From an uncultured Chloroflexia bacterium (GTDB lineage Bacteria > Chloroflexota > Limnocylindria > QHBO01): a stretch of 64,000 nt of DNA. The stretch spans positions 216,538-280,537 of the forward strand of contig CAVXEH010000014.1 in assembly GCA_963760875.1 (NCBI GenBank). Direction: 5' to 3'. Positions 1 through 16,777 of this stretch are shown piece after piece. The notes under the pieces were generated by a model, which had not been told where the DNA came from, made no database searches, and worked only from the letters and a program-made list of their open reading frames with translations. Each line of letters opens with the position of its first letter. Position 1 is the first letter of the stretch. The position numbers and the translations under genes are program-made.

Positions 1-2
1 TG

Positions 3-200
3 GAGCCACCCAATGGGAACGGCGAGGTTGGTGCGCACTCGTCGGTGTCGATCGGCGCCTTCCGGCCACACGCCGGCCGCTGGCTCCGCCAAGCGCGCCA
101 CGAGCCAGTGCTTCTGACCTGGTACGGCCGCCCGGTGGCGGTCCTGCGCGCTGCACCTTCGCGGGTGCGACTCATCGGCTTCGACGAAAGGGGTTCCGAC
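3..200 (+). CDS. Partial Phd/YefM-like antitoxin domain. The 5' end lies outside the window. The frame stays open to 548 (ORF 45..548), so the true 3' end is unclear.
   Basis: Frame-0 translation ...VSIGAFRPHAGRWLRQARHEPVLLTWYGRPVAVLRA... matches the Phd/YefM core (pvvItrrGkpvAVlvs). No stop until 548, overlapping the next gene in another frame. Confidence 0.35.
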
Positions 201-201
201 C

Positions 202-813
202 ATGACCATCGATCGGCCGCTGACCGAGATCGGCGTCCGCGAGCTGCGCGACCGGCTGCGAGCCGTTCTGGCCCGCGTCCTGGACGGCGAGCCGTACGTG
301 GTGCTCTCCAACAGCGCCCCGGTGGCGGTGATGCTGTCCAAGGGCGAGGCCGATCGCTGGGAGCGCATCGAGCGCGGGCTGGCCGCCCTCCACGGCCTCG
401 AGATCTACCCCGAGCTGGCGCGCGACACCTCGGAGCTGGCGCAACTGATGCGCCGGGAACGCACGCCTTCCGGGCGCGAGCTGGAGCGGCTGGCTCGGGC
501 GCCGCGCGACATCCTGGGCCTGCACCACCACGTCAAGGCCGTGAGTGACGTGCGGATGAACATGGCCGAGGTCCTCGACGAGGTGAGCCACGGCCGGCCC
601 TGGCTGATCGTGAGCTCGGGCCGCTACACCGCGGTCATGATTCGCCCCGCCGAGTACGACCGGCTGCTGCGCCTGCGGCGGACGGTGGCCTGGTTCCGGG
701 CGGCCGGCCTCGACCTGGCCACGGCCACCGACGACGAGGTCATCGCCTGGGCTCGTAGCTACACCGCCCAGCCGTCGGCCGCCGAGGCTGGCGAGGGGTC
801 GGCGATCGCCTGA
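202..813 (+). CDS. Protein with two tandem Phd/YefM (prevent-host-death) antitoxin-like domains.
   Basis: First domain: TEIGVRELRDRLRAVLARVLDGEPYVVLSNSAPVAVMLSKGEADRWE. Second domain: VSDVRMNMAEVLDEVSHGRPWLIVSSGRYTAVMIRPAEYDRLL. Both fit the YefM/Phd N-terminal fold signature. ATG at 202; stop at 811-813. Confidence 0.7.
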   Translation: MTIDRPLTEIGVRELRDRLRAVLARVLDGEPYVVLSNSAPVAVMLSKGEADRWERIERGLAALHGLEIYPELARDTSELAQLMRRERTPSGRELERLARAPRDILGLHHHVKAVSDVRMNMAEVLDEVSHGRPWLIVSSGRYTAVMIRPAEYDRLLRLRRTVAWFRAAGLDLATATDDEVIAWARSYTAQPSAAEAGEGSAIA

Positions 814-830
814 TCGCCTCTCGATCCGTC

Positions 831-3167
831 ATGGCCGTTCCGTTCCCCTTCCCTTTCGAACTCTTCTTCATCGCTCCCGCGCTGGTCGGCTGCATCGCCT
901 TGCTCATCTGGGCGGTTCCGCGCCTGGTTCGCGCCTGGCAGCAGCGCCGATACGACGCCACCGTCGTCACCGAGCAGGTCCGCTTCGAGATCGTGGCACC
1001 GGGACGGGCAGCGCGCGACGAGGATTCCGCCGTCGAGCTGATCCGCGCCATCGCTCCACAGCAGCGGCTGGGGGACGACCGAGGCGGCAAGGGCTGGCCC
1101 ACCTTCGAGCTGCGCGCCGAGTGGCGCGATGGCCAGCTGGTCTGGCAGTTCCAGGGCGGCCGCCAGATGGCGGTGCGCGCGCAGGGCGCCCTCGCCTCGC
1201 TGTACCCCGGGACCGAGATCGAACGCGTGGCGATCAAGGACAGACCGGCGGTCGCCAGCGCGGTGGGACGCTTGACCGCTCCGTCATCTTGGCAATTTGG
1301 CTCGCCCACGACTGCGGGCGGTGCGACGCTCAGCCGGCTGGCCACCCTGCTGGCCACCGAGGCCGACGAGGCCGACGTCCGGCTGCGGGTCGTCGTGCGA
1401 CCCATCGCGCCTGAGCGCTGGCATGGCTGGCTGTACCCCGAATCCAAGCGCGAGTCCTTCGGTGCGCTGGTCTTGGAGGCGATCCTCGACGAGGTCTTCC
1501 AGCGCCCGCACGGCTCGGCGAGGGCACAGCCCGTCGCCCTATCGGAGGACGAGCGCGAGGCGCGCAGACGGAAGCGCGCCGCGAAGATCGGCCTCGAGGT
1601 CGGCCTGCTGCTCGAGGCCGCCGGGACCGATGTCGCCAGTGCCCGGGCGCTTCTCCATCGGCTCACCGGCTTCACCGATCTGCTGAGTGACGGCCTGCAG
1701 GCCATCGACTGGCGCGTCCGCGACGGTGCCGTCACCCAGCCCTCGCGCTTCCCGCTGGGTGACTGGGAGCTGGCCCAGCTGTGGTACCTGCCCGATGCCG
1801 CCTTCGACCAGGCCGGCCTGCCCCGCCATCGACCCCTGGCTGCACCGCCGCCGAGGTCCGCCGGCAACGGTGCAGCCTTGACCATCGGGGAGTCGCGCGG
1901 TCAGCCGCTGCGCCTGCCGGCCAGCAACCTTGCGCAGCATATGGCGCTGGTAGGTGCCACCGGCTCGGGCAAGAGCACCCTGCTGCTGAACATCGCGCTG
2001 GGGGTCCTCGACACGCCCATCGGCGCGACCGTGATCGATCCGCACGGCGACCTGGCGTCCGACATCCTGTCGCGCGTCGAGCAGCGGCACGCCGAGCGTG
2101 TCCACGTCCTGCGCCTGGCGGATCGGTCCAATCCGCGCGGCTTCAACTTCCTCGAGCGCCGCGGACCCGACGACGCCCAACTGGTGACCAGCGAGTTCGT
2201 CGGGCTCTTCAGTGACCTGTGGCCCGACTACACCGGCCCCAAGATGCAGCACTACCTGCGCCATGCCCTGCTGACGTTGCTGTCCCACTCGAAGCCGCAG
2301 ACCATCCTCGAGCTCATCCGGCTGCTGACCGATGACGCCTTCCGTGAGCGCTACCTCCGCGTCGTCGACGACCCGATGCTCCTCAACTTCTGGCGCACCG
2401 AGTGGCCGTCCGGAGCCAACCGCGAGCGCGACACGTCCATCAAGGCGGTCCTCAACAAGCTCGGCGCCTTCGTCTCGTACCAGTCGGTGCGCCAGGTCGT
2501 TGGCCAGGGGACCTCGACGATTCGGCCGAGGCGGATCATGGACGACGGCGACCTGTTGGTGGTCGACCTCTCGCAGGTCGGGGCTGATAACGCCCGCCTG
2601 TTCGGCGCCATGCTCATCAGCCGCTACTACATCGACGCGGTGGGTCGGCAGGGGACCGCGCGCGAAACCCGTCGCCAGCACCTGCTGCTGGTCGACGAGG
2701 TCGGCTCCTTCGACACCCGGGCCCTGGTCCGGATCCACGACGAGGGCCGCAAGTTCGGCCTGGTGCTGGTCACCGCCGCGCAATCGCTCGCCTCGCTCGG
2801 GACGCGGCTGCGCGACTCGATCCTGACCAACGCCGGGGCGCTCGGTGTCCTATCGCCCGGTCCGGACGACGCGCAGTTGCTCCGTCGCCTGCTGGCGCCG
2901 CTGAGCGCCGATGACCTGCTCGGGCTGCGGCAGTTCGAGCTCCTGCTGCGCATGCGCGGCGCCTCCGGCGGATACGAGACCTACGGCGGGATGGTCTGTC
3001 CGCCACCGCCCGGCTCGCCCGCCGCGGCCGAGGCCGTCATCCTGGCCAGCGATGGGCGTGATGCCCGACCGGTCGACCAGGTGCGGGCCGAGGTCCATCG
3101 CCGCGCCGGCGGCGACGAGCCGCGTGTCGATGGCGGGGCGCAGCGGCCGGTGACCGATCAGAAGTGA
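831..3167 (+). CDS. VirD4/TraG/TraD-like type IV coupling protein ATPase (DUF87/TraM-recognition type) with an N-terminal TM segment.
   Basis: 778 aa. N-terminal hydrophobic helix. Walker A LVGATGSGKST; Walker B LLLVDEVGSF. This is the typical architecture of conjugative DNA-transfer coupling ATPases. Confidence 0.8.
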   Translation: MAVPFPFPFELFFIAPALVGCIALLIWAVPRLVRAWQQRRYDATVVTEQVRFEIVAPGRAARDEDSAVELIRAIAPQQRLGDDRGGKGWPTFELRAEWRDGQLVWQFQGGRQMAVRAQGALASLYPGTEIERVAIKDRPAVASAVGRLTAPSSWQFGSPTTAGGATLSRLATLLATEADEADVRLRVVVRPIAPERWHGWLYPESKRESFGALVLEAILDEVFQRPHGSARAQPVALSEDEREARRRKRAAKIGLEVGLLLEAAGTDVASARALLHRLTGFTDLLSDGLQAIDWRVRDGAVTQPSRFPLGDWELAQLWYLPDAAFDQAGLPRHRPLAAPPPRSAGNGAALTIGESRGQPLRLPASNLAQHMALVGATGSGKSTLLLNIALGVLDTPIGATVIDPHGDLASDILSRVEQRHAERVHVLRLADRSNPRGFNFLERRGPDDAQLVTSEFVGLFSDLWPDYTGPKMQHYLRHALLTLLSHSKPQTILELIRLLTDDAFRERYLRVVDDPMLLNFWRTEWPSGANRERDTSIKAVLNKLGAFVSYQSVRQVVGQGTSTIRPRRIMDDGDLLVVDLSQVGADNARLFGAMLISRYYIDAVGRQGTARETRRQHLLLVDEVGSFDTRALVRIHDEGRKFGLVLVTAAQSLASLGTRLRDSILTNAGALGVLSPGPDDAQLLRRLLAPLSADDLLGLRQFELLLRMRGASGGYETYGGMVCPPPPGSPAAAEAVILASDGRDARPVDQVRAEVHRRAGGDEPRVDGGAQRPVTDQK

Positions 3168-3260
3168 CGCCGAACTGTCGTGCGACTGTGCCTACCCACG
3201 TCAGTCCTGCGGCGGCGGCTCGTGCTCGAATCGCGCGACCGCGCGCGGGAACTCACGTAG

Positions 3261-4160
3261 ATGAGCGCCATGTTCCGCATCTCGCCCGAGCGAGCTCCTG
3301 CCCTGGTCGACATCGGCCTGCTGTTGGTGCGCGACCGTGCCGGCCTGCGCCTGCTGGACCGCTGCGAAACCCTCACCGCCGAACAGCTTGCCGTCATCGT
3401 CCATCCCACCCGTCGCACCGCGCTGCGTCGGCTGCGCCGCCTCTGGCGCCTGGGCCTGCTCGAGCGCGCGCCTCTACTGCCTGAACGAGGAGGGATCCCG
3501 ATGGCCTACCGCCTGTCGCGTCGTGGTCGCACCCGTCTGGGGGTGACCGATGCCCGCGTCCGCTCGGCTGCACATATCCGGCATGCGCTCGACACGGTCG
3601 ACGTCGTCTGCGCCCTGCTGGAGTGGTCGCGCCGGCAAGAGGACACGGAGGGTGCCGAGCCGCTGGTCCAGGCCTGGCTTCCGGAGTCCATGACCGCCGG
3701 CGTCGTGGCTCCTCGGCTGCGGCCGGACTCGATCCTGGCCCTGCAGGCCGGTCCGCTGTCTGCCGCTCTGTGCGTGGAGGTCGACGAGGCGACCGAGAAG
3801 GCGCCGGTCATCCGCGCCAAGCTCGCCGCCTACGACGCCGCGCTCGGTGGCCGCATCGGCTGGCACCTGCTGTGGGTCGTTCCCTCACGCGATCGCGTCG
3901 ACTGGCTCCGCCGCCTCACTGCCCACGATCCCCCGCGACGCCTCCGCGGGCGCTGCTGGGCGGTCGTCCTGCCGGAGCTGCGGCCGTTGGGCGCCTCCGC
4001 CGAGGCCATCCCGGTCGGCTGGGCGGGCGAGCCCCGCCGCCTGATTGCGGTCCTCGACGACCCGCGGTCGCGCCGATGCCCGACTCCCATCGGCACCGAA
4101 GCCTGGATCAACCTCCTCGCCACCGGCGGCGGCGAGGACCTCTCCGAGGCGCTGCGCTGA
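3261..4160 (+). CDS. Replication-relaxation family protein (Replic_Relax, wHTH).
   Basis: LTAEQLAVIVHPTRRTALRRLRRLWRLGLLER... is the pattern typical of PF13814 proteins from small actinobacterial plasmids and integrative elements. Confidence 0.7.
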   Translation: MSAMFRISPERAPALVDIGLLLVRDRAGLRLLDRCETLTAEQLAVIVHPTRRTALRRLRRLWRLGLLERAPLLPERGGIPMAYRLSRRGRTRLGVTDARVRSAAHIRHALDTVDVVCALLEWSRRQEDTEGAEPLVQAWLPESMTAGVVAPRLRPDSILALQAGPLSAALCVEVDEATEKAPVIRAKLAAYDAALGGRIGWHLLWVVPSRDRVDWLRRLTAHDPPRRLRGRCWAVVLPELRPLGASAEAIPVGWAGEPRRLIAVLDDPRSRRCPTPIGTEAWINLLATGGGEDLSEALR

Positions 4161-4405
4161 GGCGTCGCCGCCACCGCGTCGTTCACGACCGCCATGCCTG
4201 GCCGCCAGACTGTCCCGCGGACCCCTCGCAGACCGCCCCGTCAAGTGCCCCGTCACCGCGGGCGGCGCTCCAGGCGGTCGCCACACGCGCCACGGACCGC
4301 CCAGCGCCGGAACCAGTCACCTGCCGTCCGCCGAACGGCGAGAGCACCTCGGCGAGGGCGAGGCCGAGAGCCTGGTCAGGACCCGAATCGGATCATTCGA
4401 CTCCT

Positions 4406-4460
4406 GGCCGAATGGGTCGCGGAATAGTGCTGCAACGCAGCGCGGCGTACCATTCGGACC
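4406..4460. promoter_or_regulatory. Inverted repeat GGCCGAATGGG / CCATTCGGACC, about 32 bp apart, just upstream of the serine recombinase start. Additional CGAAT-containing half-sites flank it.
   Basis: ccgaatgg (4408-4415) is the exact reverse complement of ccattcgg (4450-4457). cgaatcgg/cattcga and cgcgaatc lie nearby. The recombinase start is at 4483. Confidence 0.3.
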
Positions 4461-4482
4461 AGAGACCGCGAATCTGACGACG

Positions 4483-5964
4483 ATGCAGAAACTCCTTCCC
4501 CGTTCACTCGACGACCTGCGAGGGTTGCGTGCCGCCCGCTGGCTACGCGAATCGACCGGCGAGCAGTTCGACCGGTATGGCCCTGACAGCCAGCGCGAGC
4601 AGATGGAGCGCTTCGCCCAGCGCTTCGCCCTGGTCGACACCGGCCTGGCCTGGGAGGTCCCGGCCTCGGGTCGGACGGTGTGGCGCCATCCCACCATGGC
4701 CGCCATGCTGGCCGCCGCCCGCGCCGGCAGATTCGACATCCTCCTCACCGGCTACGCCGATCGCTGGCAGCGCAACCTGCGCCGCTTCCTGGAACTCATC
4801 GAGGATGCCCTCCACCCTTCTGGCGTGGCTCTCGTCATGTGCGACCGGCGCCTGCTGTCCAGCGACCCCCATGACTGGGACGAGATGGTCCGCGAGGCGC
4901 ACGCTGCCGAGATCTACAGTCGCCGCCTCGGCGAACGGATCGCGGACGGCTACGAGGCCCGCTACCACCGCTATGCCGATCCAGCCGGCAACGCCCCGCT
5001 CGGGTTCCGCCGGCAACCTGAGCCACCCCACCTGCTCGAAATCGATCCCGACGCCATCGGTCAGATCGTGCAGCTATTCGACGCGTACGGCCGGGGCGAC
5101 GCCAGCTACGCGAACCTTGGACATCAGTTCGGGCTGGCGGAGGCGAGGGTACGCGAGATCCTGGGCAATCCGGTGTACAACGGCTGGGCTGTCCGTGGCA
5201 GTCGAGGGCGGCGACGGCCCGAGGAGCGCGTCCCTGCGCGGTGGCGGGACGACCCGCCGGTGGACGACGATCTCTGGGACCGCGTGATGGCAGTTCGTCG
5301 GCAGCACAGGCATGGCGGAGGCCCTCGCAGGCGCGAGCGCCTTGACCCACTCGCCGGAGTGGTGTTCTGCACCTGCGGGCGGTACGTGAAGGCCAACGGG
5401 CTTGATGGCGGCGGCCGCCATCAGCGGATCCACCTTGGGTCCTGTTCGGCATGGGACGGGCGCCGGACCTACCCGACCGACACTTGGTACCGCCCGATGC
5501 TGGCTCAGGTTGCTCAGATCCGGCTCGACGACGCGACCGTCGAGCGCGTGGTCCACGCTCTGGGGCGTCCGGCGTTGGAACATGACGAGCTGCGCCGGAA
5601 GCGCGTCGAAGCGCGGCGCCGGCAGCTGGCATCGGACTATGCGGCCGGCACCTTGAACGAGGCGGAGTTTCTAAACGCCGCGGCGACGGTCCGCGACGAA
5701 GGCGAGACAGCGCCACGGACTCGACGTGCAACAGATCCACGGTCCGCGGCACGTCGGCTGCGCGACTTCGCCAGCCTCTGGTCGTCCCGCTCGGAAGCCC
5801 AGCGGGCCGAGATGCTCCGCACGATCTACGCTCGCGTCGAGGTCGAGGGCGCGACATTCGTCCAGGCGCACCTGACGGCTGACGCGCAGGAGTTGGGGCT
5901 TACGCTCGCGCTGCCCGAGTCGTTTGCTATGGCGCGCCCGGCAGGAATCGAACCCGCGACCTGA
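4483..5964 (+). CDS. Large serine recombinase (site-specific integrase).
   Basis: N-terminal resolvase catalytic motif AARWLRESTGEQ (R-x-S-T-x-x-Q) and a long C-terminal domain typical of large serine recombinases. The ATG at 4483 follows a long leader that is open in the ORF track from 4045. The 3' end overlaps the tRNA 3' end. Confidence 0.85.
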   Translation: MQKLLPRSLDDLRGLRAARWLRESTGEQFDRYGPDSQREQMERFAQRFALVDTGLAWEVPASGRTVWRHPTMAAMLAAARAGRFDILLTGYADRWQRNLRRFLELIEDALHPSGVALVMCDRRLLSSDPHDWDEMVREAHAAEIYSRRLGERIADGYEARYHRYADPAGNAPLGFRRQPEPPHLLEIDPDAIGQIVQLFDAYGRGDASYANLGHQFGLAEARVREILGNPVYNGWAVRGSRGRRRPEERVPARWRDDPPVDDDLWDRVMAVRRQHRHGGGPRRRERLDPLAGVVFCTCGRYVKANGLDGGGRHQRIHLGSCSAWDGRRTYPTDTWYRPMLAQVAQIRLDDATVERVVHALGRPALEHDELRRKRVEARRRQLASDYAAGTLNEAEFLNAAATVRDEGETAPRTRRATDPRSAARRLRDFASLWSSRSEAQRAEMLRTIYARVEVEGATFVQAHLTADAQELGLTLALPESFAMARPAGIEPAT

Positions 5965-6005
5965 TGGTCCGAAGCCATCCGCTCTGTCCGCTGAGCTACG
6001 GGCGC
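5930..6005 (-). tRNA. tRNA-Arg, anticodon TCG by manual folding, CCA encoded.
   Basis: The reverse complement folds as a 76-nt cloverleaf: acceptor GCGCCCG/CGGGCGC, U8, D-stem GCTC/GAGC, anticodon stem GATGG/CCATC with loop CUUCGGA (U33, anticodon UCG), 5-nt variable loop, T-stem GCGGG/CCTGC with TTCGATT loop, discriminator G, CCA. Confidence 0.8.
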
Positions 6006-6060
6006 GCGCCTCACGCTCACAGCGAGCGGAAGACCAGGCGAGCCATTCTGCCACAGCGCC
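5965..6060. repeat. Repeat copy 1: tRNA positions 1-41 plus about 55 nt of promoter-side flank. This is part of the intact tRNA locus.
   Basis: tggtccgaagccatccgctctgtccgctgagctacgggcgcgcgcctcacgctcacagcgagcggaagacc... recurs at 7335 and 8540. Confidence 0.85.
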
Positions 6061-6119
6061 CGGAGAGCGGGATGGTCTGGGGGTCAGACCTAGCTCACAG
6101 ATCGGCCAGCGGGAAGGAA

Positions 6120-6210
6120 TTCGGTACGGTGAGTTTCTTGTGAGGTCACCGTACCGAAGCACGTGCTAAAATTCGGTACGGTCCAATTATCCGGGGAGGT
6201 ATGTACCGAA
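6120..6210. promoter_or_regulatory. Array of four TTCGGTACGG-type sites in alternating orientation (spacing about 26 nt) in the 5' region of the fic gene.
   Basis: TTCGGTACGGTGA (6120-6132); TCACCGTACCGAA (6147-6159), a perfect inverted repeat of site 1; TTCGGTACGGTCC (6172-6184); GTACCGAA (6203-6210). The region is locally AT-richer. Confidence 0.45.
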
Positions 6211-6228
6211 CTCGTGCCGATTGAGATG

Positions 6229-7503
6229 CCGCAGCGTGGCCGCCCAACGCGCCTCGCCATCTTCGACGGCGTCGATCGCGAGATCGAGGAGATGCGCCGC
6301 ATCGGCGGGCTGCCCGCACCGTTTGAGGCACGCGATATCTGGACGGGCATCTGGTACGAGGAGGCGCACAACTCTACCGCGATCGAGGGCAACACCCTGC
6401 TGCTCAAACAAGTCCGGGTCTTGCTCGATGAGGGACGTGCCGTGGGAAATGAAGAGCTCGCGCAGTATCTCGAGGTCCAGGGCTATGCAGAAGCCGCTGA
6501 ATGGGTATACGAGCAGGCAACAAAGGCGGTGGCCTCGGTACCCAGCGACCACATCACGCTGACCGAGCTGCGACAGATGCACCGAACCCTGGTCGAGGCG
6601 GTATGGAAGGTGAAGCCTCCTGAACAGCTCATCGCCGGGGAAGGGCCAGGGTCATTCCGCCTGCACGACATCGGCGCCTTTGCCGGCGGGATGAAGCCAC
6701 CACCATTCACCGACGTCCACGCGCTCATGAGCGACTGGATCCGGGACGCGAATGCGGCACCCCGCAGCGGACAGCACCTCATGGAGCACCTGGCTACCCT
6801 CCATGCTCGCTTCGAGCAGATCCATCCGTTCCGCGATGGGAATGGGCGTGCAGGTCGCCTCGCCCTCAACCTGCTCCTCGTGCGGCGAGGCTACGCGCCC
6901 GCCGTGATCTACAAGCGGGACCGCGCGAAGTACCTGGCCGCACTCCGCCGGTCGGATCGCGGTAACAGCGGGTCCCTCGCGGAGCTCGTTGCGCGCGCAG
7001 TCAAGGACGGGCTGGACCGCTTCCTGTTGCCGGCCCTCGCCGGCCCGCATCGGCTGCTGCCGTTGTCAGCGCTGGCCGAGCGGGACCTCAGCCCGCTGGC
7101 CCTGCGCAGAGCCGCGCAGGCGGGCCGACTCCGCGCGACTCACCAGAACGGTCGCTGGTACTCGACGAAGCGCGATGTCCTCGCCTACCGGCAAGCCGCC
7201 GTCGCGGCCGGCCGTCATCGAGAGCGCTTGACGGGCCCGCGCGCGGGAGGCTCCTACGAAGTGCAGACACAGCGGATAACTCGGCGCGAAATGGTCGGCG
7301 CTGCACGAGGGCCAGCACACCGCCGTCGGATCTCTGGTCCGAAGCCATCCGCTCTGTCCGCTGAGCTACGGGCGCGCGCCTCACGCTCAAAGCGAGCGGA
7401 AGACCGAACGGGACATTGTAGGCACAGCGCTTGGACAGCAGAATGGTCGGCCGGTCCGTCTTGCATACCGGCGTCGGGCGGGACACGCCAAGTGACAACT
7501 TGA
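6229..7503 (+). CDS. Fic family protein (Fic/DOC adenylyltransferase-type). The C-terminus reads through the repeat junction and is probably truncated or replaced.
   Basis: Canonical Fic motif HPFRDGNGRAGRLALNLLLVRRG. The ORF is open from 6163 (GTG), and ATG at 6229 or GTG at 6217 are likelier starts. There is no stop before the reading frame enters repeat copy 2 (7266-7430) and the tRNA-remnant sequence. It ends at 7503. Confidence 0.7.
   Translation, partial: PQRGRPTRLAIFDGVDREIEEMRRIGGLPAPFEARDIWTGIWYEEAHNSTAIEGNTLLLKQVRVLLDEGRAVGNEELAQYLEVQGYAEAAEWVYEQATKAVASVPSDHITLTELRQMHRTLVEAVWKVKPPEQLIAGEGPGSFRLHDIGAFAGGMKPPPFTDVHALMSDWIRDANAAPRSGQHLMEHLATLHARFEQIHPFRDGNGRAGRLALNLLLVRRGYAPAVIYKRDRAKYLAALRRSDRGNSGSLAELVARAVKDGLDRFLLPALAGPHRLLPLSALAERDLSPLALRRAAQAGRLRATHQNGRWYSTKRDVLAYRQAAVAAGRHRERLTGPRAGGSYEVQTQRITRREMVGAARGPAHRRRISGPKPSALSAELRARASRSKRAEDRTGHCRHSAWTAEWSAGPSCIPASGGTRQVTT
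7266..7430. repeat. Repeat copy 2: a 65-nt X segment, then a partial tRNA (positions 41-1, at 7335-7375), then about 55 nt of tRNA upstream flank.
   Basis: cagcggataactcggcgcgaaatggtcggcgctgcacgagggccagcacaccgccgtcggatctc followed by tggtccgaagccatccgctctgtccgctgagctacgggcgcgcgcctcacgctcaaagcgagcggaagacc. It is about 85% identical to copy 3 over about 160 nt. Confidence 0.85.
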
Positions 7504-7523
7504 CAACTTGTCAGATCGGCCCG

Positions 7524-7883
7524 ATGCTGGGCCTTATGAACGCCGTCCTTTACTCGAACGCCCGCAATGAGTTCGCCGACATCTTCGCTGCGGCGATTGC
7601 TCACGCGCCCACTCGCATCGCCCGACGCCGGTCCGGAGAGGCGGTCCTCATCGGGCGCGACGATCTGCTCGCGCTAACCGAGCCGTTCGCCTTCCACCCT
7701 GCCGTTTACTTCGAGCCGAGCACGGTGTCGGTGTGGCTTCCGGAGTTCGAGGTGTGGGGACGAGGCGCCGACTTCGAGTCAGCCAAGGAGGACTTGATCG
7801 ACGAAGTGCGGCAATACATCGAGGAATACCTGGCCGCTGAGCGCGTCCGCATGGCTCCCAATCACCGGCCACACGTTCCGTAG
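7524..7883 (+). CDS. Orphan Phd/YefM-like antitoxin-family protein.
   Basis: MLGLMNAVLYSNARNEFADIFAAAIAHAPTRIARRRSGEAVLIGRDDLLALTE fits the Phd/YefM N-terminal domain. Stop at 7881-7883. No recognisable toxin gene downstream. Confidence 0.55.
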   Translation: MLGLMNAVLYSNARNEFADIFAAAIAHAPTRIARRRSGEAVLIGRDDLLALTEPFAFHPAVYFEPSTVSVWLPEFEVWGRGADFESAKEDLIDEVRQYIEEYLAAERVRMAPNHRPHVP

Positions 7884-8470: not shown

Positions 8471-8635
8471 GCGACAGCGGATAACTCGGCCCAAAATGGT
8501 CAATGCTCCACGAGGGTGAGCACACCGCAGCGGGGTCTCTGGTCCGAAGCCATCCGCTCTGTCCGCTGAGCTACGGGCGCGCGCTTCACGCTCACATCGA
8601 GCGGAAAACCAGACGAGGCATTCTGCCACACGGCT
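8471..8635. repeat. Repeat copy 3: X segment, then a partial tRNA (8540-8580), then upstream flank.
   Basis: cagcggataactcggcccaaaatggtcaatgctccacgagggtgagcacaccgcagcggggtctc then tggtccgaagccatccgctctgtccgctgagctacgggcgcgcgcttcacgctcacatcgagcggaaaacc...cattctgccaca. Confidence 0.85.
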
Positions 8636-10032: not shown

Positions 10033-12588
10033 TCATTCGAAATGCCGCAGGCTGCCGACGATCGACAGCCGCGCGGCGAGACGCGCGGGATAGATGCCGG
10101 CCAGTGCGGCAATCCCCGTGCCCAGCAGCACGACGATCACCAGCAGCAGCCACGGAACGGCGATCCCCCCGAAGTCGGACACGGCACCGACGGAGACGAG
10201 AGCCCAGGCCACCAGCAGTCCCACCCCGGCCGCCGCCAGCCCGCCGATGGTGCCCATGATGGCCGCCTCGGCCACGACCATGGCCTGCACCTGGCGGAGC
10301 GTCATCCCGTGCGAGCGCAGGATGGCGATCTCGCGGATGCGCTCGACCACGCCCATCGAGAGCGTGTTCACGATGCCCAGCCCTGCGATCAGGACGGAGA
10401 TGAAGGCGAGCGCGTCGAAGAGCCCGATGAGCCGATCGAGCGACTGGGACAGGTCGCCCGCGAGGTCGGCCGCGGTGATGGGTGCGGCGGCCAGGCTGCC
10501 AGCCATGTCCGCGACGGCCGAGCGGAACGCCGCCGGATCCACGCCGTCCTTGGGAACCAGGGCCCACAGCGAGGCGTCCGATGCGCCGAACACGTCCTTC
10601 GCATCGGCGAGGCTGACGAGCAGGTCGCCGTCACCACCCGGGGACGGAATCGAGTACGCGACCACCCCGGCCACCCGGAATGCGACGGGCGCCTGGCCGG
10701 GGAGACCAAGCAGCACTGAGTCCCCGGTCCCCAGCCCGTCGCGCTGGGCGATGGGCGCGGGCAGCAGGACCGCCTTTCCCTGCTCCAGGCCGGCGAAGGC
10801 CGACGTGCGGTCGCCATCGGTGAAGATCAGCGAGCCGGTCTGGTCGTAGACCGTTGGGTCGATGCCGGCTGCGGCCACCTCGGTTCGCTGCGACCCGTCG
10901 ACGCGAATGGCCGGGAACTCCACGATGGGCGTCGCGGTGCGCAGACCGCTGATCGCGTCGAGGGTGTCGCCGATGTCGGCCTCGCCGACGGCAATCCCCA
11001 GGCGCATGCCGTAGCCGCCGGGCAGCACCGAGTCGACCCAGCGCTGGGCGGTTCCGCGCGCCGTCTCCGCGACGGTTCCCAGCGCCACCACCGCCGCCAG
11101 ACCAATGAGCAGGGCACCCACGGTCAGCCCGGTGCGCGCCCGATCACGGGCCAGGTTCGCGCGTCCCAGCAGACCCTCCGCGCCGTAGAACCATTCGAAC
11201 GGCCTGCCGACCACGCGCCCGATGGGCTCCACCGCCAGCGCCACGACGGCGGCGCCGGCCACCAGGACGGCGACCGCCAGCAGCACCGCCGGCAGGGAGG
11301 CACTCCCTCGGGCCAGTGGATAGGTGGCCAGGCCCACGAGGATCAGGACGATCTCCAGCGCCACCAGCCAGCGGAGACGGTCCCACAGGCTGCGAACCGG
11401 CTGACGCGAGGGGCGAAGCGCATCGAGCGGACCGACGCGGGCGGCCAGCAGCGCGGGAACGCCGGCGGCGGCCACGGTCACCGCCAGGCCCACGCCCAGC
11501 GCCAGGAGCAGCGACAGCGGGTTGAGCGGCAGGCCATCGATCAGGACCGCGCGGGTGCTGCGCAGGAAGCCGATCATGCCGGCGGCCACCGCAATGCCCA
11601 GCAGGATGCCCAGCACCGAACCCGCCGTGCCCAGCGCGACCGCCTGGCGGCCGAAGATTCCCATGATCTGGCGCGCGGTGGTTCCTGCCGCTCGGAGCAG
11701 CCCGATCTCACGGCTGCGCTCGCTCAGGGTCATGCTCATGGTGTTGGCGACCAGGAAGCCGCCCACGGCAAGCGCTACCAGCCCGAACAGGAATGCGATG
11801 CCCGCGAATCCGTCCTGCGCCCGCTGGAGCTGGGCGGTGGCCGTCGCCACCGTCTCGACCACGAACGGCTCGTCCAGCGAACGGTCGAGCCCGGCCTGCA
11901 CCGTCTCCAGCTGGCCCGGGGCCACGACGAGGTCGACGGAGGTGACCGGCGCGACGACGACGGTGGTCTGGTCACCGGCCAGCTGGTCTTCGATTGTGGC
12001 CCGCGGCATGACTGCCACCGCACCCGAGCCCAGCGCCCCAAAGCCCACGTCGTCGAGGAGGCCGACGATGGTGAGCGGGGCCGCTCCCGCCTTCGCCCCG
12101 GACAGAAGCAGCTGGTCACCCACGCCCAGGTGGTGATCGGAGGCCCAGTGGGCGTTGACCATGACCTCGTCACTGCCGCTGTCGCTGAGGTAGCGCCCGG
12201 CGACGAGATGCGGGTCGCGGACAGCCCGATCGCTCGCCGGATCGATGCCGATCACCAGCATCCCGCTGAACACCTGCTCCTGCGGTCCGGGCAGCGTGCT
12301 CAGCTGCAGTCGCCGCTCGCTCACGGCAGCGGCCGCCTCCACGCCGGGCAGGCCGCGCAGGGCGGTGACCGCCCGGGCGGTCAGCCCGGTGTCGGAGAAC
12401 GCCCGCACCCGGAGATCGGCGCGGCCGAAGAGCTCGCTGGCGGCCCGCTGCACGGCGTCGGTCGCCGCCTGGTTGGCGACCAGGGTGGCGGTGATGATCG
12501 CGACACCAAGGGCGATGCCAGCGACGGTGAGGGCCGTGCGCAGCGGCCGGGCGCTGAGACCGCGCCAGGCCAGGGCGCTCAGGCGCAT
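10033..12588 (-). CDS. ABC transporter permease, FtsX/MacB-type with duplicated FtsX domains.
   Basis: 851 aa. Multiple TM blocks and large extracytoplasmic loops. FtsX-like C-terminal 4-TM bundles (...IAILRSHGMTLRQV...). Confidence 0.8.
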   Translation of the reverse strand: MRLSALAWRGLSARPLRTALTVAGIALGVAIITATLVANQAATDAVQRAASELFGRADLRVRAFSDTGLTARAVTALRGLPGVEAAAAVSERRLQLSTLPGPQEQVFSGMLVIGIDPASDRAVRDPHLVAGRYLSDSGSDEVMVNAHWASDHHLGVGDQLLLSGAKAGAAPLTIVGLLDDVGFGALGSGAVAVMPRATIEDQLAGDQTTVVVAPVTSVDLVVAPGQLETVQAGLDRSLDEPFVVETVATATAQLQRAQDGFAGIAFLFGLVALAVGGFLVANTMSMTLSERSREIGLLRAAGTTARQIMGIFGRQAVALGTAGSVLGILLGIAVAAGMIGFLRSTRAVLIDGLPLNPLSLLLALGVGLAVTVAAAGVPALLAARVGPLDALRPSRQPVRSLWDRLRWLVALEIVLILVGLATYPLARGSASLPAVLLAVAVLVAGAAVVALAVEPIGRVVGRPFEWFYGAEGLLGRANLARDRARTGLTVGALLIGLAAVVALGTVAETARGTAQRWVDSVLPGGYGMRLGIAVGEADIGDTLDAISGLRTATPIVEFPAIRVDGSQRTEVAAAGIDPTVYDQTGSLIFTDGDRTSAFAGLEQGKAVLLPAPIAQRDGLGTGDSVLLGLPGQAPVAFRVAGVVAYSIPSPGGDGDLLVSLADAKDVFGASDASLWALVPKDGVDPAAFRSAVADMAGSLAAAPITAADLAGDLSQSLDRLIGLFDALAFISVLIAGLGIVNTLSMGVVERIREIAILRSHGMTLRQVQAMVVAEAAIMGTIGGLAAAGVGLLVAWALVSVGAVSDFGGIAVPWLLLVIVVLLGTGIAALAGIYPARLAARLSIVGSLRHFE

Positions 12589-12603: not shown

Positions 12604-13350
12604 TCACAGACCCAGCTCGGCCAGACGATGGATGAGCGGCGCCGCGGCGTGGTCGGCCCGGCGCCCCAGGTTGATCTCATCGAGGATCTGCCCGTCTCGG
12701 ACGACCAGAACCCGATCAGCGTATGCCGCGGCCCGGGCATCGTGGGTGACGAGCACGATGGTCTGCCCAAGGCGCTCGCAGGAGTCCCACAGGAGGCCCA
12801 GGATCTCCGCCCCGGTGGTGTAGTCGAGGTTGCCGGTCGGCTCGTCCGCGAGCAGGATCGCGGGCTCCGTCGCCAGGGCTCGCGCCAGGGCCACCCTCTG
12901 CTGCTCCCCGGCGGAGAGCTGGTCCGGGCTGTTGTGACCCTTGCCACCCAGGCCGACGAGCTCCAGGAGCTGATCCACGCGCGGCCGGTGCGCCGCCGCC
13001 GCATCACCCGCGATGAGGAACGGCAGGGCCACGTTCTCGCTCACCGAGAGCAGCGGGATCAGGTTGAAGTACTGGAACACGAAACCGGTCTTCGCCCGAC
13101 GGGTCAGCGTGCGCTGCTCCTCGTCCATGTCCGTCAGGTTCACGCCGTCGATGACCACCTCGCCGCTGCTGGGCAGGTCGAGCCCGCCCAGGAGGTGGAG
13201 CATCGTGGATTTGCCGGATCCCGACGCGCCCATGATCGCCACGAACTCGCCCTTGGTGACGGAGAGGGACACGCCCCGCAGGGCGTCGACCTCGCGTCCG
13301 CCGAGCGGATAGCGTTTCACGAGGTCGTGGGCCTCGAGGATCACCGACAT
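12604..13350 (-). CDS. ABC transporter ATP-binding protein (MacB/LolD-like).
   Basis: Walker [10 protein letters not shown]; signature [15 protein letters not shown]; Walker [13 protein letters not shown]. Start at [10 protein letters not shown]. Confidence 0.85.
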
Positions 13351-13433: not shown

Positions 13434-14363
13434 TCAGCCGAGGAAGAAGCCCAGGAGGCTGCCGACGACCGTGTCGAAGAACCCATGGTCGGCGGGCGGC
13501 GCGGCGTCGATCCGGAACTGCGAGGCGACCACCGTGGCCCCCAGCGCATGGCGCGCGAACGGATCACGAGCCACCCAGTTCGCGGGCACCTGCCAGGCGT
13601 CGCCGGCACGCATCACGGCCTCCGCTGCCAGCGGGATGGCCGGAGTCGGTGTCGGGGTGGCGGTGGACGTTGGAGTCGGGGTGGACGTGGCTGCGGCGGC
13701 CGGCGTGGAGGTGCCGGTGGCCGGCGGGGGTGCCGTCGGCCTGGGCGTGGGCTTCGGCGTGGGCTTCGGCGTGGGCTTGGGGGTCGGAGCCGGTGCGGAG
13801 GACTTGGCCTGCATGAAGAGCTCGGTGTACATCCGGGGGCTGCGCGGCTTGCCCTGCCAGACGACGCTGTCGGCCGCGTAGGCTCCGATGCCGCCATGGG
13901 TCCAGACCGGGTTGAGGATGTTGTCGCGGTGGTCCGTCGAGTTCATGAAGGCGGTGTTGATGGCCACCGGAGAGTCGCCATCGGAATACCCGGAGTTCCA
14001 GCCGATGTTCTCGCCACCCCATGAGTACGACAGCCCATTGGTGTCGTAGTAGTGGAAGACCAGGCAGCCGCCGCAGGCGGGGATGTTGTGGCTGAAGTAG
14101 TCGTTGACGATCATGTCCTTCGACCGCCATCGGGCAATGCTCACCAGCGTGCTGTTCTGCTGGATGGGCTTGACGCCGTTGTTCACACGGTCGCCGTTCA
14201 TGAGGGACCACAGGCTGGATTCGGCCGCGCTCTGGTTCCAGCCCGCGACGATGCCCGGCGTCCAGGCCAGGAGCGCCGCGGTGAGCAGCGTGATGCCGGC
14301 GAGCGAGGCGGCACGCGCCACCGGTCGTCGGTTCCGGGTTCGATGCAGCAGCGGTTCGGACAT
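13434..14363 (-). CDS. Secreted CAP (SCP/PR-1-like) domain protein with a TPKP-repeat Pro/Thr linker and a C-terminal domain.
   Basis: Signal peptide. CAP motifs YFSHN...DHRDNIL...GENIGW. Linker APTPKPTPKPTPKPTPRPT. Confidence 0.7.
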   Translation of the reverse strand: MSEPLLHRTRNRRPVARAASLAGITLLTAALLAWTPGIVAGWNQSAAESSLWSLMNGDRVNNGVKPIQQNSTLVSIARWRSKDMIVNDYFSHNIPACGGCLVFHYYDTNGLSYSWGGENIGWNSGYSDGDSPVAINTAFMNSTDHRDNILNPVWTHGGIGAYAADSVVWQGKPRSPRMYTELFMQAKSSAPAPTPKPTPKPTPKPTPRPTAPPPATGTSTPAAAATSTPTPTSTATPTPTPAIPLAAEAVMRAGDAWQVPANWVARDPFARHALGATVVASQFRIDAAPPADHGFFDTVVGSLLGFFLG

Positions 14364-14597: not shown

Positions 14598-15605
14598 ATG
14601 ACCACGATGACGACTGCGGGCGAAGCACCCGCTGCGCTCATGGACCACGTCTCCAAGCGCTTCGGGACGGTAGAAGCGCTCAGCGACGTCAGCCTGCGCG
14701 TGCCGCGCGGGTCGCTCGTGGGCGTGATTGGTCCCAGCGGGGCGGGAAAGACGACGGCCATTGCGCTCCTCACCGGCAACGCGGTACCCAGCGAAGGGCA
14801 GCTCCAGACCCTGGGCGAGGCGCCGGCGCGGCTGCGACGCTCGACCCGCTCGCGCATCGGCCTCATGCCGCAGCAGCTCACCCTGTTTGCCGACCTGTCC
14901 GCCGCGGAGAACGTCGACTTCTTCGGCAGCCTGTTCGGGCTTCTCGCCGGCCAGCGGCGCAAACGCACGGAGGCGGTCCTGCGCCTGCTCGAGCTCTGGG
15001 ACGTTCGCGGTCGGCGCGCGTCGCGCCTGTCCGGGGGCCAGCAGCGGCGGGTCCAGCTCGCGTGCGCCCTGGTGCACGAACCCGAGCTCATCTTCCTCGA
15101 CGAACCCACCGCCGGCATCGACCCGCTGCTGCGGCGGAGCGTGTGGGACGAGCTGCTCCACCAGCGCGATCGCGGCCGGACCCTGGTGGTGACCACGCAG
15201 TACGTCGTCGACGCCGATCACTGTGACGTCGTGGCGCTCATCGCCGGAGGTCGGCTGCTGGCGTTCGCCCCGCCCGGGGACCTGCGCCGTTCGGCCCTCC
15301 ACGGTGAGGTCGTGCAGGTCGAGGTCGAGGGCAGCTGGGACGCGCGCCCCCTCCGGGAGCTGCCCGTCGTGCGACGGCTCCATCGGCTCGCGCCCGGCCG
15401 CTACTGGGTAGTTGTGGACAACGCGGGCCGGGACACGCCGGACGTCATGGAGGCAGTGCGCGGCTCCGGGGTCGACGTCGTCTCCATCCGCGAATACCGG
15501 CCCAGCTTCGACGAGGTCTTCGAGACGCTGGTCCGCCGCGACACCGACGGCACCACCAATGGCGGCGGTGGCACGGATATCCTCGCCCTCCAGCTGCGCC
15601 GATGA
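14598..15605 (+). CDS. ABC transporter ATP-binding protein (ABC-2 type).
   Basis: GPSGAGKTT Walker A; LSGGQQRRVQLACAL signature; IFLDEPTAGID Walker B. Confidence 0.85.
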   Translation: MTTMTTAGEAPAALMDHVSKRFGTVEALSDVSLRVPRGSLVGVIGPSGAGKTTAIALLTGNAVPSEGQLQTLGEAPARLRRSTRSRIGLMPQQLTLFADLSAAENVDFFGSLFGLLAGQRRKRTEAVLRLLELWDVRGRRASRLSGGQQRRVQLACALVHEPELIFLDEPTAGIDPLLRRSVWDELLHQRDRGRTLVVTTQYVVDADHCDVVALIAGGRLLAFAPPGDLRRSALHGEVVQVEVEGSWDARPLRELPVVRRLHRLAPGRYWVVVDNAGRDTPDVMEAVRGSGVDVVSIREYRPSFDEVFETLVRRDTDGTTNGGGGTDILALQLRR

Positions 15606-16777
15606 ACGTGCTGCGGGCCATCACGCGGACCTTCGCGGTCGCTGGCAAGGAGACCCTCGTCGTGGTTCGCCGGCCATCCGCGCTCGCCACCCTGGTGCTA
15701 GGCCCGGTGATCATCCTGGCGGTCTTCGGGCTGTCCTACACGGGCCAGCCGGCGGTCCGCGCGGTGCTGGTGATTCCGCAGGGGAGCGGCCTGCCGAGCG
15801 ACCCGGCCGCGTACCACCTGGACAGCGCCGGGACGCTCAACGTGGTCGGCACGGCCGACAACGTCGAGGCCGCGCGGCGCCAGGTACAGGCTGGAACGGC
15901 CGACATCCTGGTGGCCGCCCCGGCGGACGCCGCGAAGGAGCTCCGCGACGGTCACCAGGTCACCATCCGTGTCGAGTACGACACAGTGAACCCCTATCAG
16001 AAAGCCGTGATCACCCGGCTCGCGCAGCCGCTGGCGGACAGCGTCAACCAGCAGATCATCAAACAGGCGGTCGCCTCCGGCGAGGGGCAGAGTGGAGCGT
16101 CGAACCTGCCGGCACCCGACGTGATCGCCGCTCCCACGAAGGCCGAGACCCATGATCTGGCTCCCACCGACCCCAGCCTGATCGCGTTCTACGGGATCGC
16201 GGTCCTGGCCCTCATCCTCCAGCACCTGGGCCTGACCCTTGGCGCGCTGTCCATGACGACTGATCGGCGGCAGAGCATGAGCGTCCTCCTGCGGGTGGCA
16301 CCCGTCACCGCATCCGAGCTGCTCGCCGGCAAGTACATCGCCTTCGCGATCCTGGTCGGGCTGGTGGGTGCCGCCCTCGTCGGACTGATGACCTGGGGAC
16401 TGGGCGTGCCCATGCTCGCCGCCACCGGCCCGGTGCTCCTGCTCCTTGGGCTCCTGGTCCTGGCCTCCATCGGCCTGGGCATGACCATCGCGCAGCTCAC
16501 GCAGTCGGAGTCGCAGGTCATCCAGCTTGCCCTGCTGGTGCTGCTTGCCTCGGTCTTCTTCGGGGGCCTGGCAATCGACCTCACGCAGTTCGCACGGCCC
16601 CTCCAGGTCGGCGCCGAGCTCCTCCCGGTAACGCAGGCCACGCGGCTGGGGCAGGACCTGTTCCTCCGCGGAGGCACCGGCGAAGCGTGGCGGTACGCGG
16701 CGCTGGCCGCGATGGTCATCGTGTTTGCGGCCACCGCCTGGGTCCTGCTGCGCAGAAGCCTCCTGCTGCGCCGATGA
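15602..16777 (+). CDS. ABC-2 family transporter permease.
   Basis: Six TM segments. Start overlaps the ATPase stop. Typical ABC-2 exporter permease topology. Confidence 0.75.
   Translation: MNVLRAITRTFAVAGKETLVVVRRPSALATLVLGPVIILAVFGLSYTGQPAVRAVLVIPQGSGLPSDPAAYHLDSAGTLNVVGTADNVEAARRQVQAGTADILVAAPADAAKELRDGHQVTIRVEYDTVNPYQKAVITRLAQPLADSVNQQIIKQAVASGEGQSGASNLPAPDVIAAPTKAETHDLAPTDPSLIAFYGIAVLALILQHLGLTLGALSMTTDRRQSMSVLLRVAPVTASELLAGKYIAFAILVGLVGAALVGLMTWGLGVPMLAATGPVLLLLGLLVLASIGLGMTIAQLTQSESQVIQLALLVLLASVFFGGLAIDLTQFARPLQVGAELLPVTQATRLGQDLFLRGGTGEAWRYAALAAMVIVFAATAWVLLRRSLLLRR

Follow-up and report, generated by a model that had tools for sequence, protein, structure and literature searches.

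A probable integrative mobilizable element of soil Chloroflexota carrying a large serine recombinase that ends inside a tRNA-Arg gene

An integrative element at a tRNA-Arg gene

The 64-kb window analysed here (the whole stretch of DNA, from contig CAVXEH010000014.1 of an uncultured Chloroflexia bacterium) starts inside an integrative element, about 200 bases past the element's left end. Window 1-5945 probably represents most of an integrative mobilizable element (IME) of about 6.2 kb from Limnocylindria-type soil Chloroflexota, which would integrate at a tRNA-Arg gene by a large serine recombinase (LSR) and would be transferred by a MOBC-type relaxase and a coupling-type ATPase through a helper element. 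An earlier note, made from the letters of the sequence, had proposed a compact integrative element with relaxase, coupling-type ATPase and serine integrase, and this proposal is supported both by the protein domains and by the evidence of mobility.

Three metagenome contigs served for comparison. L001 and L002 are two Danish soil contigs, each encoding the exact LSR protein of the window, and L007 is a third contig with a related element, used as comparison copy. Window 1-5964 is 100% identical to L001 5519-11482, while the host genes shared with L001 to the right (a PCC-domain protein, a MacB-type ABC transporter and ferredoxin/POR) are only 78-85% identical, and window 6001-7000, to the right of the tRNA, is without counterpart in L001. 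L002 equals L001 from the left end of L002 to 17 nt past the tRNA, beyond which lies an unrelated element headed by a tyrosine integrase. L007 holds the same Phd/ATPase/Replic_Relax/LSR set, with 81.6% nucleotide identity, at a tRNA-Arg(TCT) gene. Both of its flanks are unrelated. The 100% identity across genomes with flanks of about 80%, together with an 82% identical copy at another tRNA-Arg gene, thus indicates that the element is mobile, and these sequence comparisons point clearly to its recent horizontal spread. When L001 is compared with L007, identity is 80-95% over the cargo and the catalytic domain of the LSR and only 43-72% over its DNA-binding half (window ~5030-5900) and the left end, as would be expected for a swap of target between the TCG and TCT isoacceptors.

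The four co-directional genes of the earlier note (202-813, 831-3167, 3261-4160 and 4483-5964) are all present on the plus strand, and its Phd, Replic_Relax and LSR assignments are borne out by Pfam. They encode, respectively, a double Phd/YefM antitoxin-like protein without a toxin partner (PF02604 in two stretches, E 1e-16; TIGR01552, 3e-14), a 778-aa membrane-anchored P-loop ATPase of the FtsK/HerA/VirD4 superfamily with DUF87 and TrwB_AAD_bind matches, probably a type IV coupling protein, a 299-aa Replic_Relax (MOBC-type, PF13814) protein, probably a relaxase, and the 493-aa LSR with Resolvase and Recombinase domains. A spacer of 322 nt (4161-4482), 58-85% identical between L001 and L007, separates the relaxase and recombinase genes, and our repeat search found only short, weak repeats in it. 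The intact target gene, tRNA-Arg with anticodon TCG (5930-6005, minus strand; ARAGORN; Rfam RF00005, 66.9 bits, E 7e-13), is the sole tRNA of the window.

A further small Phd/YefM-like open reading frame (ORF), ORF0, precedes these genes. Its start lies 111 nt before the window (L001 5407), its 3' part occupies window 1 to approximately 209 on the plus strand, and its frame overlaps the next gene (202-813). ORF0 matches PhdYeFM_antitox (E 6.9e-8, 32.6 bits against a cut-off of 29.8), and its translation is conserved in L007 (85% at the amino acid level) and in L149 (57%). The 202-813 gene is kept upstream of the ATPase gene in L007, L149 and a subset of metagenome loci. Among the window ORFs no toxin gene adjoins either Phd gene. 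The Phd-like proteins, with three to four such domains among them, most likely serve as DNA-binding regulators or as accessory factors. ORF0 opens with a stretch of about 85 nt (L001 5407-5490, i.e. 111 to ~28 nt before the window) that L001 and L007 share at ~100% identity, although the two elements are otherwise 82% identical. This conservation appears to exceed what coding explains, and the segment could act in cis, for instance as an origin of transfer (oriT) or an operator. A promoter noticed by eye upstream of ORF0 (TTGACT-17-TAGCCT) was dropped, as a consensus scan does not call it.

The recombinase family and its target

The LSR matches Resolvase (PF00239, 8e-13) and Recombinase (PF07508, 1e-4, 22.8 bits against a cut-off of 21.1), with weak NCBIfam matches to XisF (5e-9) and CcrB (2e-8). 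Its start at ATG 4483 agrees with the N-termini of the 17 homologues used in the residue-conservation alignment. The catalytic Ser24 in RESTGEQ and the motif DRWQRNLRR are invariant among 18 homologues, as is the zinc-ribbon pattern (C296, C298, H317 and C321). Relatives of about 500 aa number in the hundreds at about 50% identity; none was found in the phage collection at 1e-5.

The last 35 nt of the LSR ORF overlap the 3' part of tRNA-Arg(TCG). Codons through Gly (5944-5946) would belong to the element, and the last five codons with the stop (5947-5964) are antisense strand of the tRNA, the terminal residues ARPAGIEPAT being the antisense of acceptor stem and T arm. Such a tRNA-antisense tail, ...ARP(T/A/E)G(F/I/L)EP(A/P)T..., with endings such as FGSGGRRSIH, was found in 98 of the 120 best homologues, and about 15 of the 120 carry a native tail instead, ...ARPTG-VGxALATYxIPIEGRDEWLAAARRxA. 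In a species-level scan with one genome per species, which yielded 80 loci, all from Chloroflexota metagenome-assembled genomes and mostly from Ca. Limnocylindrales/Limnocylindria, the LSR overlaps a minus-strand tRNA-Arg in 55 (44 CCG, 6 TCT and 5 TCG). The register is fixed in 48 of these 55: exactly 31 nt separate the tRNA 3' end from the end of the codon that aligns with residue 493. Ending inside tRNA-Arg is a family-wide rule of these enzymes and not a local accident. Cargo varies among the 80 loci, with the ATPase/relaxase set present only in L001, L002, L007, L008 and L010. The abutment of an LSR on a tRNA gene had been called unusual in the earlier note, which holds, yet a published precedent exists in DsiB/ssrA of Dehalococcoides (PMC3146451).

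Three contigs without a tRNA carry family LSRs with native tail and attP (element attachment site) palindrome both intact (L003 7572-9110, L005 4878-6434 and L006 6180-7724). L005 and L006 look phage-like, with lysin, HNH and many small ORFs, and in L003 a ParB-methyltransferase gene comes after the LSR gene, which recalls the integration module of Dehalococcoides.

Crossover site and exchange of the C-terminal tail

Upstream direct repeats were found in six loci (L014, L040, L064, L073, L080 and L083). They consist of the 16-17 3'-terminal tRNA bases, TGGCGCGCCCGACAGG(A), i.e. the ARPxG codons, after which the left attachment site (attL) departs from the right one (attR). Past the repeat, attL enters native-tail-coding DNA in L040 and L073, and a frame-shifted remnant of the tail in L080. 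In LSR genes with a native tail, an imperfect palindrome of about 44 bp surrounds the Gly codon, with 12-17 of 21 arm positions complementary, and its centre falls between the two G of this codon in seven of nine native-tail loci; an intact serine-integrase attP would look like this. The direct repeats, together with the native-tail palindrome centred on the Gly codon, therefore place attP inside the LSR reading frame.

By homology with these relatives, the crossover GG of the window copy would lie at 5944-5945, approximately tRNA positions 61-62, in the 3' strand of the T stem beside the T loop. The putative attR (5921-5968) would comprise a P arm in the element (5921-5944), the central GG (5944-5945) and a B' arm in the tRNA (5946-5968), and the predicted right end of the element, on the P-arm side of the crossover, reads ...GCCCGGCAG|G. 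This differs from the anticodon-loop junction that had been proposed for the LSR in the earlier note: the crossover is placed at the boundary of T stem and T loop, and the junction at the anticodon stem belongs to separate repeats of the tRNA 5' half, described below.

With attP placed within the LSR ORF, integration would replace the C-terminal tail of the enzyme. In the proposed mechanism, the LSR would integrate the circular element into tRNA-Arg at the GG in the T stem 3' strand and swap the last ~15 tRNA bases for an identical copy brought by the element, so that the tRNA would be kept intact. The DNA coding for the native tail would thereby be shifted to the far (left) end of the element, and the integrated LSR would lose its own C-terminal tail of 20-25 residues and end in tRNA-derived codons. 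In tandem arrays, an upstream LSR would regain a native-type tail from the left arm of its neighbour, with which L014, L040 and L073 are consistent. We also suggest, tentatively and as a doubtful point, that the free circle might make a full-length integrase with the tail '...IPIEGRDEWLAAAR', that the integrated form would be tail-less or tRNA-tailed, and that this swap might act as a switch of directionality or activity in place of a separate directionality factor.

Left boundary and state of the integrated copy

The homology between L001 and L007 begins 180-200 nt left of window position 1, and the left end of the element was accordingly placed ~180-260 nt before the window, to within ~100 nt. 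Since homology starts there, the element would be only ~6.2 kb long and made of these genes alone, with window 1-5945 as its right-hand ~97%. The left end thus lies outside the window, as the earlier note had said, although only by this short distance, and a leftward search through L001 and L007 located the end but yielded no canonical attL.

Several observations at this boundary weigh against a freely moving element of this size. L001 and L002 share a block of at least 11.5 kb at 100% identity, of which 5.3 kb lie left of the element, and the most recently exchanged unit could therefore exceed 6.2 kb. A canonical attL, i.e. the displaced 16-nt tRNA end (TGGCGCGCCCGGCAGG) followed by the P' arm, was not found for the window element: no displaced tRNA 3' half was found in the 10 kb left of the recombinase, local alignment of the left boundary with attR scored no higher than noise in L001 as well as in L007, tblastn with native tails detected no tail-coding DNA in L001, L002 or the window, the P' arm of L017 (the closest native-tail relative) does not match the left end, and the scores for an inverted copy of the P arm fall inside the background distribution. 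The best attL candidate in a 16-mer search, L001 5242-5257, in the 135-nt gap that separates ORF0 from the protease gene upstream, matches 12 of the 16 tRNA-end bases, close to the chance level. The element boundaries did not show either in mismatch maps comparing L155 with L007 and L001 with L002. The left end of L007 encodes '...ILSRIVYAIPIDLHSGPT*', whose IPI motif recalls native tails and may faintly hint at the trace of one.

The lack of a clean attL and the extended identity of L001 and L002 would suit a locked-in remnant, in which the window copy has a truncated, tRNA-encoded tail and a degenerate attL, does not excise, and owes its identity across genomes to homologous recombination of a larger block; decayed relatives do exist, for example L089, where the recombinase is truncated, and L014, which holds pseudogene fragments. 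We regard this as improbable, however, given that none of the five ORFs is disrupted and the catalytic residues are invariant, that the module occurs at two different tRNA-Arg genes whose flanks are unrelated, and that a tRNA-encoded tail is the normal integrated state of the family, as seen in most of its members. A mobile element, from which the circle would be excised by the LSR, accounts better for these features.

Further left in L001, 7.6 kb from the element, lies a paralogous serine recombinase of 512 aa (830-2368), 43% identical over the catalytic domain and without a tRNA tail. Its neighbours are a Transposase_mut gene, an extracytoplasmic function (ECF) sigma/anti-sigma pair and a secreted serine protease gene, and the region may be another island.

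The mobilization pair

The product of 831-3167 had been described in the earlier note as a VirD4/TraG-like coupling ATPase. A P-loop ATPase and a probable type IV coupling protein (T4CP) it remains, but VirD4/TraG membership is no more than likely, as HerA, VirB4 and TrwB all match the fold. Pfam detected the DUF87/HerA central domain (1e-9), TrwB_AAD_bind (6e-5) and FtsK_SpoIIIE (4e-4). The TrwB_AAD_bind score of 22.5 bits exceeds the cut-off of 20.5, although no single stretch passes alone. GATGSGKST and the Walker B DE are invariant, and the ~330 relatives are of constant length (~780 aa), many of them with PF10412 and PF01935. Structure was assessed with AlphaFold2 (AF2) models of the ATPase and the Replic_Relax protein, compared by Foldseek. 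The ATPase model (predicted local distance difference test, pLDDT, 80.6) shows a long N-terminal helix (9-47), a middle domain of ~280 aa (50-330) and the ATPase domain (340-760). This last domain superposes on TrwB with a root-mean-square deviation (rmsd) of ~5 A and a target-normalised template modelling (TM) score of 0.61-0.65, the best rmsd and TM values in the Foldseek comparison. Plasmid relatives at 29-34% identity are annotated as type IV secretion system (T4SS) DNA-binding, conjugative DNA transfer or TraM-recognition proteins. Taken from sequence and model, the 831-3167 product likely belongs to the VirD4/TraG-type coupling proteins.

The 3261-4160 product matches Replic_Relax (PF13814) with 1.4e-20 and 74.6 bits (cut-off 25.3). 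In CONJscan this family corresponds to the MobC superfamily (PMC5357655), and MOBC relaxases are PD-(D/E)XK enzymes with an N-terminal winged helix-turn-helix (PMC12857230). The AF2 model (pLDDT 91), with an N-terminal winged helix and an alpha/beta, restriction-endonuclease-like domain, agrees with that description. Its top Foldseek matches are FokI (3e-4), PaqCI, XisH and MarR/PadR winged-helix proteins, and P155-D156 and E173-x-D175 are invariant. The protein is probably a relaxase, as judged from its sequence and predicted fold. At 1e-5, no relatives of it were found in the plasmid collection.

In a survey of 57 metagenome loci gathered with the ATPase profile, the Replic_Relax gene lies 100-250 nt 3' of the ATPase gene in essentially every locus with enough sequence, and a Phd gene precedes the ATPase gene in a subset. 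Downstream of the pair there is either this LSR family with tRNA-Arg (L129), another LSR ending in tRNA-Pro(CGG) (L096, L105 and L135), or unrelated genes. L152 and L154, whose ATPases are 58-61% identical, have the pair at the end of a cluster resembling an integrative and conjugative element (ICE), with ParA/CbiA, a T2SSE (TadA/VirB11-like) ATPase, T2SSF, TadE/TadG-like pseudopilins, RcpC, a 730-aa P-loop_TraG/AAA_10 ATPase (7.5e-13; VirB4-like) and an SLT+M23 cell-wall hydrolase, and in L154 a tyrosine integrase follows further downstream. As the pair ends an ICE-like cluster in these loci, the ATPase fills the slot of the coupling protein there, and the IME reading holds.

Two further observations concern the surroundings of the pair. 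The other LSR is a second, distant subfamily (35% identical over the catalytic domain; L096 13436-15040, L135 1972-3576 and L105) whose ORF reads through the minus-strand tRNA-Pro(CGG) and ends ...GARGFEPPTSSS..., the same trick with another tRNA. ThiS-like, ThiF (E1-like) and AAA_16 genes recur downstream of the pair (L149 13662-21929, L152 16629-20745 and L154 15146-19369).

Other observations do not favour a transfer function. By Foldseek E-value, HerA (4e-15) and VirB4 (5e-14) score ahead of TrwB (7e-13), although with poor rmsd, and the best match of the ATPase in a defence library of hidden Markov models (PADLOC) is mad8 (6e-14). No oriT-like repeats stand out, only short and weak ones being present, and a helper element is not visible in the data for this genome. 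In L149-151, the trio stands amid type I restriction-modification, HEPN/NTase and RES genes, and a close relative in such a defence-island context has no visible integrase. The trio of Phd, ATPase and nuclease might therefore be an anti-phage defence or addiction cassette built on a HerA-like ATPase and a PD-(D/E)XK nuclease, and be mere cargo of an LSR island. In line with such a cassette, several HerA models besides mad8 match the ATPase, HerA-NurA and DUF4297-HerA complexes are among its Foldseek matches, the nuclease has a fold like that of restriction enzymes, and Phd domains are typical of toxin-antitoxin systems. We hold this to be quite improbable, because the nuclease exceeds the Pfam Replic_Relax/MOBC cut-off three-fold, the ATPase has an N-terminal membrane helix and fits TrwB best by TM score and rmsd, those of its plasmid relatives that are annotated count as coupling proteins, VirB4-like, hydrolase and pilus genes and an integrase adjoin the pair in L152 and L154, and the Phd genes have no toxin gene beside them. 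Very unlikely, finally, is a self-sufficient element with an FtsK/TraB-like pump for double-stranded DNA, as in actinomycete integrative elements, or with Replic_Relax as replication initiator of the circle, for which the weak FtsK_SpoIIIE match, matches to CedB/CedD and the Pfam family name 'replication-relaxation' could be cited, since FtsK-type matches span the P-loop only, fold and gene context indicate coupling proteins working with a VirB4 machine, and no replication genes are present among the element ORFs.

For a mobilizable element, a MOBC-type nuclease would nick the DNA at a putative oriT, and the membrane-anchored ATPase would pass it to the mating machinery that a conjugative element of the Tad-pilus/VirB4 type provides in the same cell. 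The earlier note had stated that the element has no mating-pore genes; there are none in the 64-kb window, nor in L001, L002 or L007, and the Tad/VirB4 clusters of related bacteria could act as helpers. The clusters themselves (L152 1-13358 and L154 1-20907) are a candidate conjugation system of uncultured soil bacteria.

Repeats of the tRNA 5' half

To the right of the tRNA, direct repeats of the 5' part of tRNA-Arg (nt 1 to ~41) with about 50 nt of upstream, promoter-side sequence were found at window 7335-7417 and 8540-8622, each preceded by a conserved left arm of ~65 nt (7269-7334 and 8474-8539); L001 holds three such repeats (12900-12937, 14080-14117 and 15011-15045). They are a mirror image of the usual 3'-fragment repeats, and they part from the intact tRNA exactly past the 3' strand of the anticodon stem, where by coincidence the LSR stop (5964) also ends. 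Repeats of this kind occur in 9 of 54 related loci, all starting 36 (+/-2) nt from the tRNA 3' end. The islets between them have a lower G+C content (62-68% against 70-73%) and carry cargo only (Fic, PHD_like antitoxin, Kelch, kinase and regulator genes), with no recombinase genes. In the window, this cargo includes a Fic/DOC-domain gene whose ORF runs into the tRNA-fragment repeat (6163-~7334; Pfam 4e-18) and a PHD_like antitoxin gene (7431-7883; 6e-12).

The coincidence of the LSR stop made the anticodon-stem junction a candidate for the LSR crossover. It was rejected because of L083, a locus that has this tRNA and this LSR tail and in which the two attachment sites, attL and attR, have already diverged 28 nt from the tRNA 3' end. 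This divergence, the repeats' own register and the cargo-only islets indicate that the junction belongs to a different integration system acting on the 5' side. In L002, a tyrosine integrase (11629-12573; Phage_integrase 1.8e-25) lies at the 5' side of the same tRNA, which suggests that the tRNA is used from both sides by two recombinase classes. This enzyme is the only candidate seen for the 5'-half repeats, and no homologues of it were found beside other 5'-half arrays. Its element also holds a Replic_Relax gene (15877-16776, minus strand).

Relation to known systems

The closest published case is DsiB of Dehalococcoides, an LSR that targets a tRNA-like gene (ssrA) and whose own 3' end overlaps the attachment site (McMurdie et al. 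2011, PMC3146451). The authors of that study suggested that full function of the enzyme may depend on its being on the circular element or next to another island (PMC3146451). Compared by published description, the two systems share the phylum, an LSR of ~500-540 aa, integration in the T-loop region of a tRNA-like gene, an integrase 3' end that always overlaps the attachment site with the stop codon outside the island, tandem arrays, and islands regarded as mobilizable without transfer genes of their own. They differ in the target, which is tRNA-Arg (three isoacceptors) here and tmRNA there, and in the integration module of DsiA, ParB and Mom, absent here, where the cargo is relaxase and coupling ATPase.

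The order of a VirD4 coupling protein, a PF13814/MobC relaxase and a serine integrase is also known from the streptococcal IME_Class_8 (Coluzzi et al. 2017, PMC5357655), a likewise compact and co-directional module. However, that class belongs to another phylum, uses another target site, lacks the Phd-like genes and has a canonical VirD4, whereas the coupling protein of the element described here is a divergent DUF87/TrwB-like protein with an extra domain of ~280 aa. Like the MOBC relaxases TraX (pAD1) and MobC (CloDF13), the window relaxase has PF13814 and, in the model, a winged helix and a restriction-endonuclease-like domain, but it shows no pairwise similarity to plasmid-borne members at E 1e-5. 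With the T4CPs TrwB, VirD4 and Cag-beta the ATPase shares the membrane anchor, Walker A and B, the superposition on TrwB and the position of its gene beside the relaxase gene; it differs in an identity of only ~16% and in its additional middle domain, and HerA and VirB4 score equally by E-value.

Archaeal integrases of the SSV1 type likewise have attP inside the recombinase reading frame, and integration into a tRNA gene alters the gene. They are tyrosine recombinases, and their gene is split in two, whereas here only the last ~25 codons would be exchanged. What appears new in the present family, as read from sequence comparison, is the tRNA-Arg target with its three isoacceptors, a family both large and consistent, the attP palindrome in the ORF, the conserved native tail, and a connection with Tad/VirB4-type ICEs in Chloroflexota.

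Implications

Serine integrases with a conserved tRNA target are possible tools for genome engineering, and if the tail does act as a switch, the family would represent naturally programmable integrases aimed at the highly conserved T-arm/acceptor sequence of tRNAs. The proposal of 2011 that the free and the integrated integrase differ is now testable, because the native-tail and tRNA-tail forms and a predicted 44-bp attP are available in sequence. Beside the single published serine integrase that targets a tRNA-like gene, the LSR family provides a second and much larger case, which spans 55 or more species-level genomes and tRNA-Arg genes of three isoacceptor types, and in which attP would again lie inside the integrase's own ORF. 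Together with the MOBC and coupling pair and the Tad/VirB4-type ICEs, it offers a first view of the conjugation-related mobilome in the abundant, uncultured Limnocylindria-type Chloroflexota of soil.

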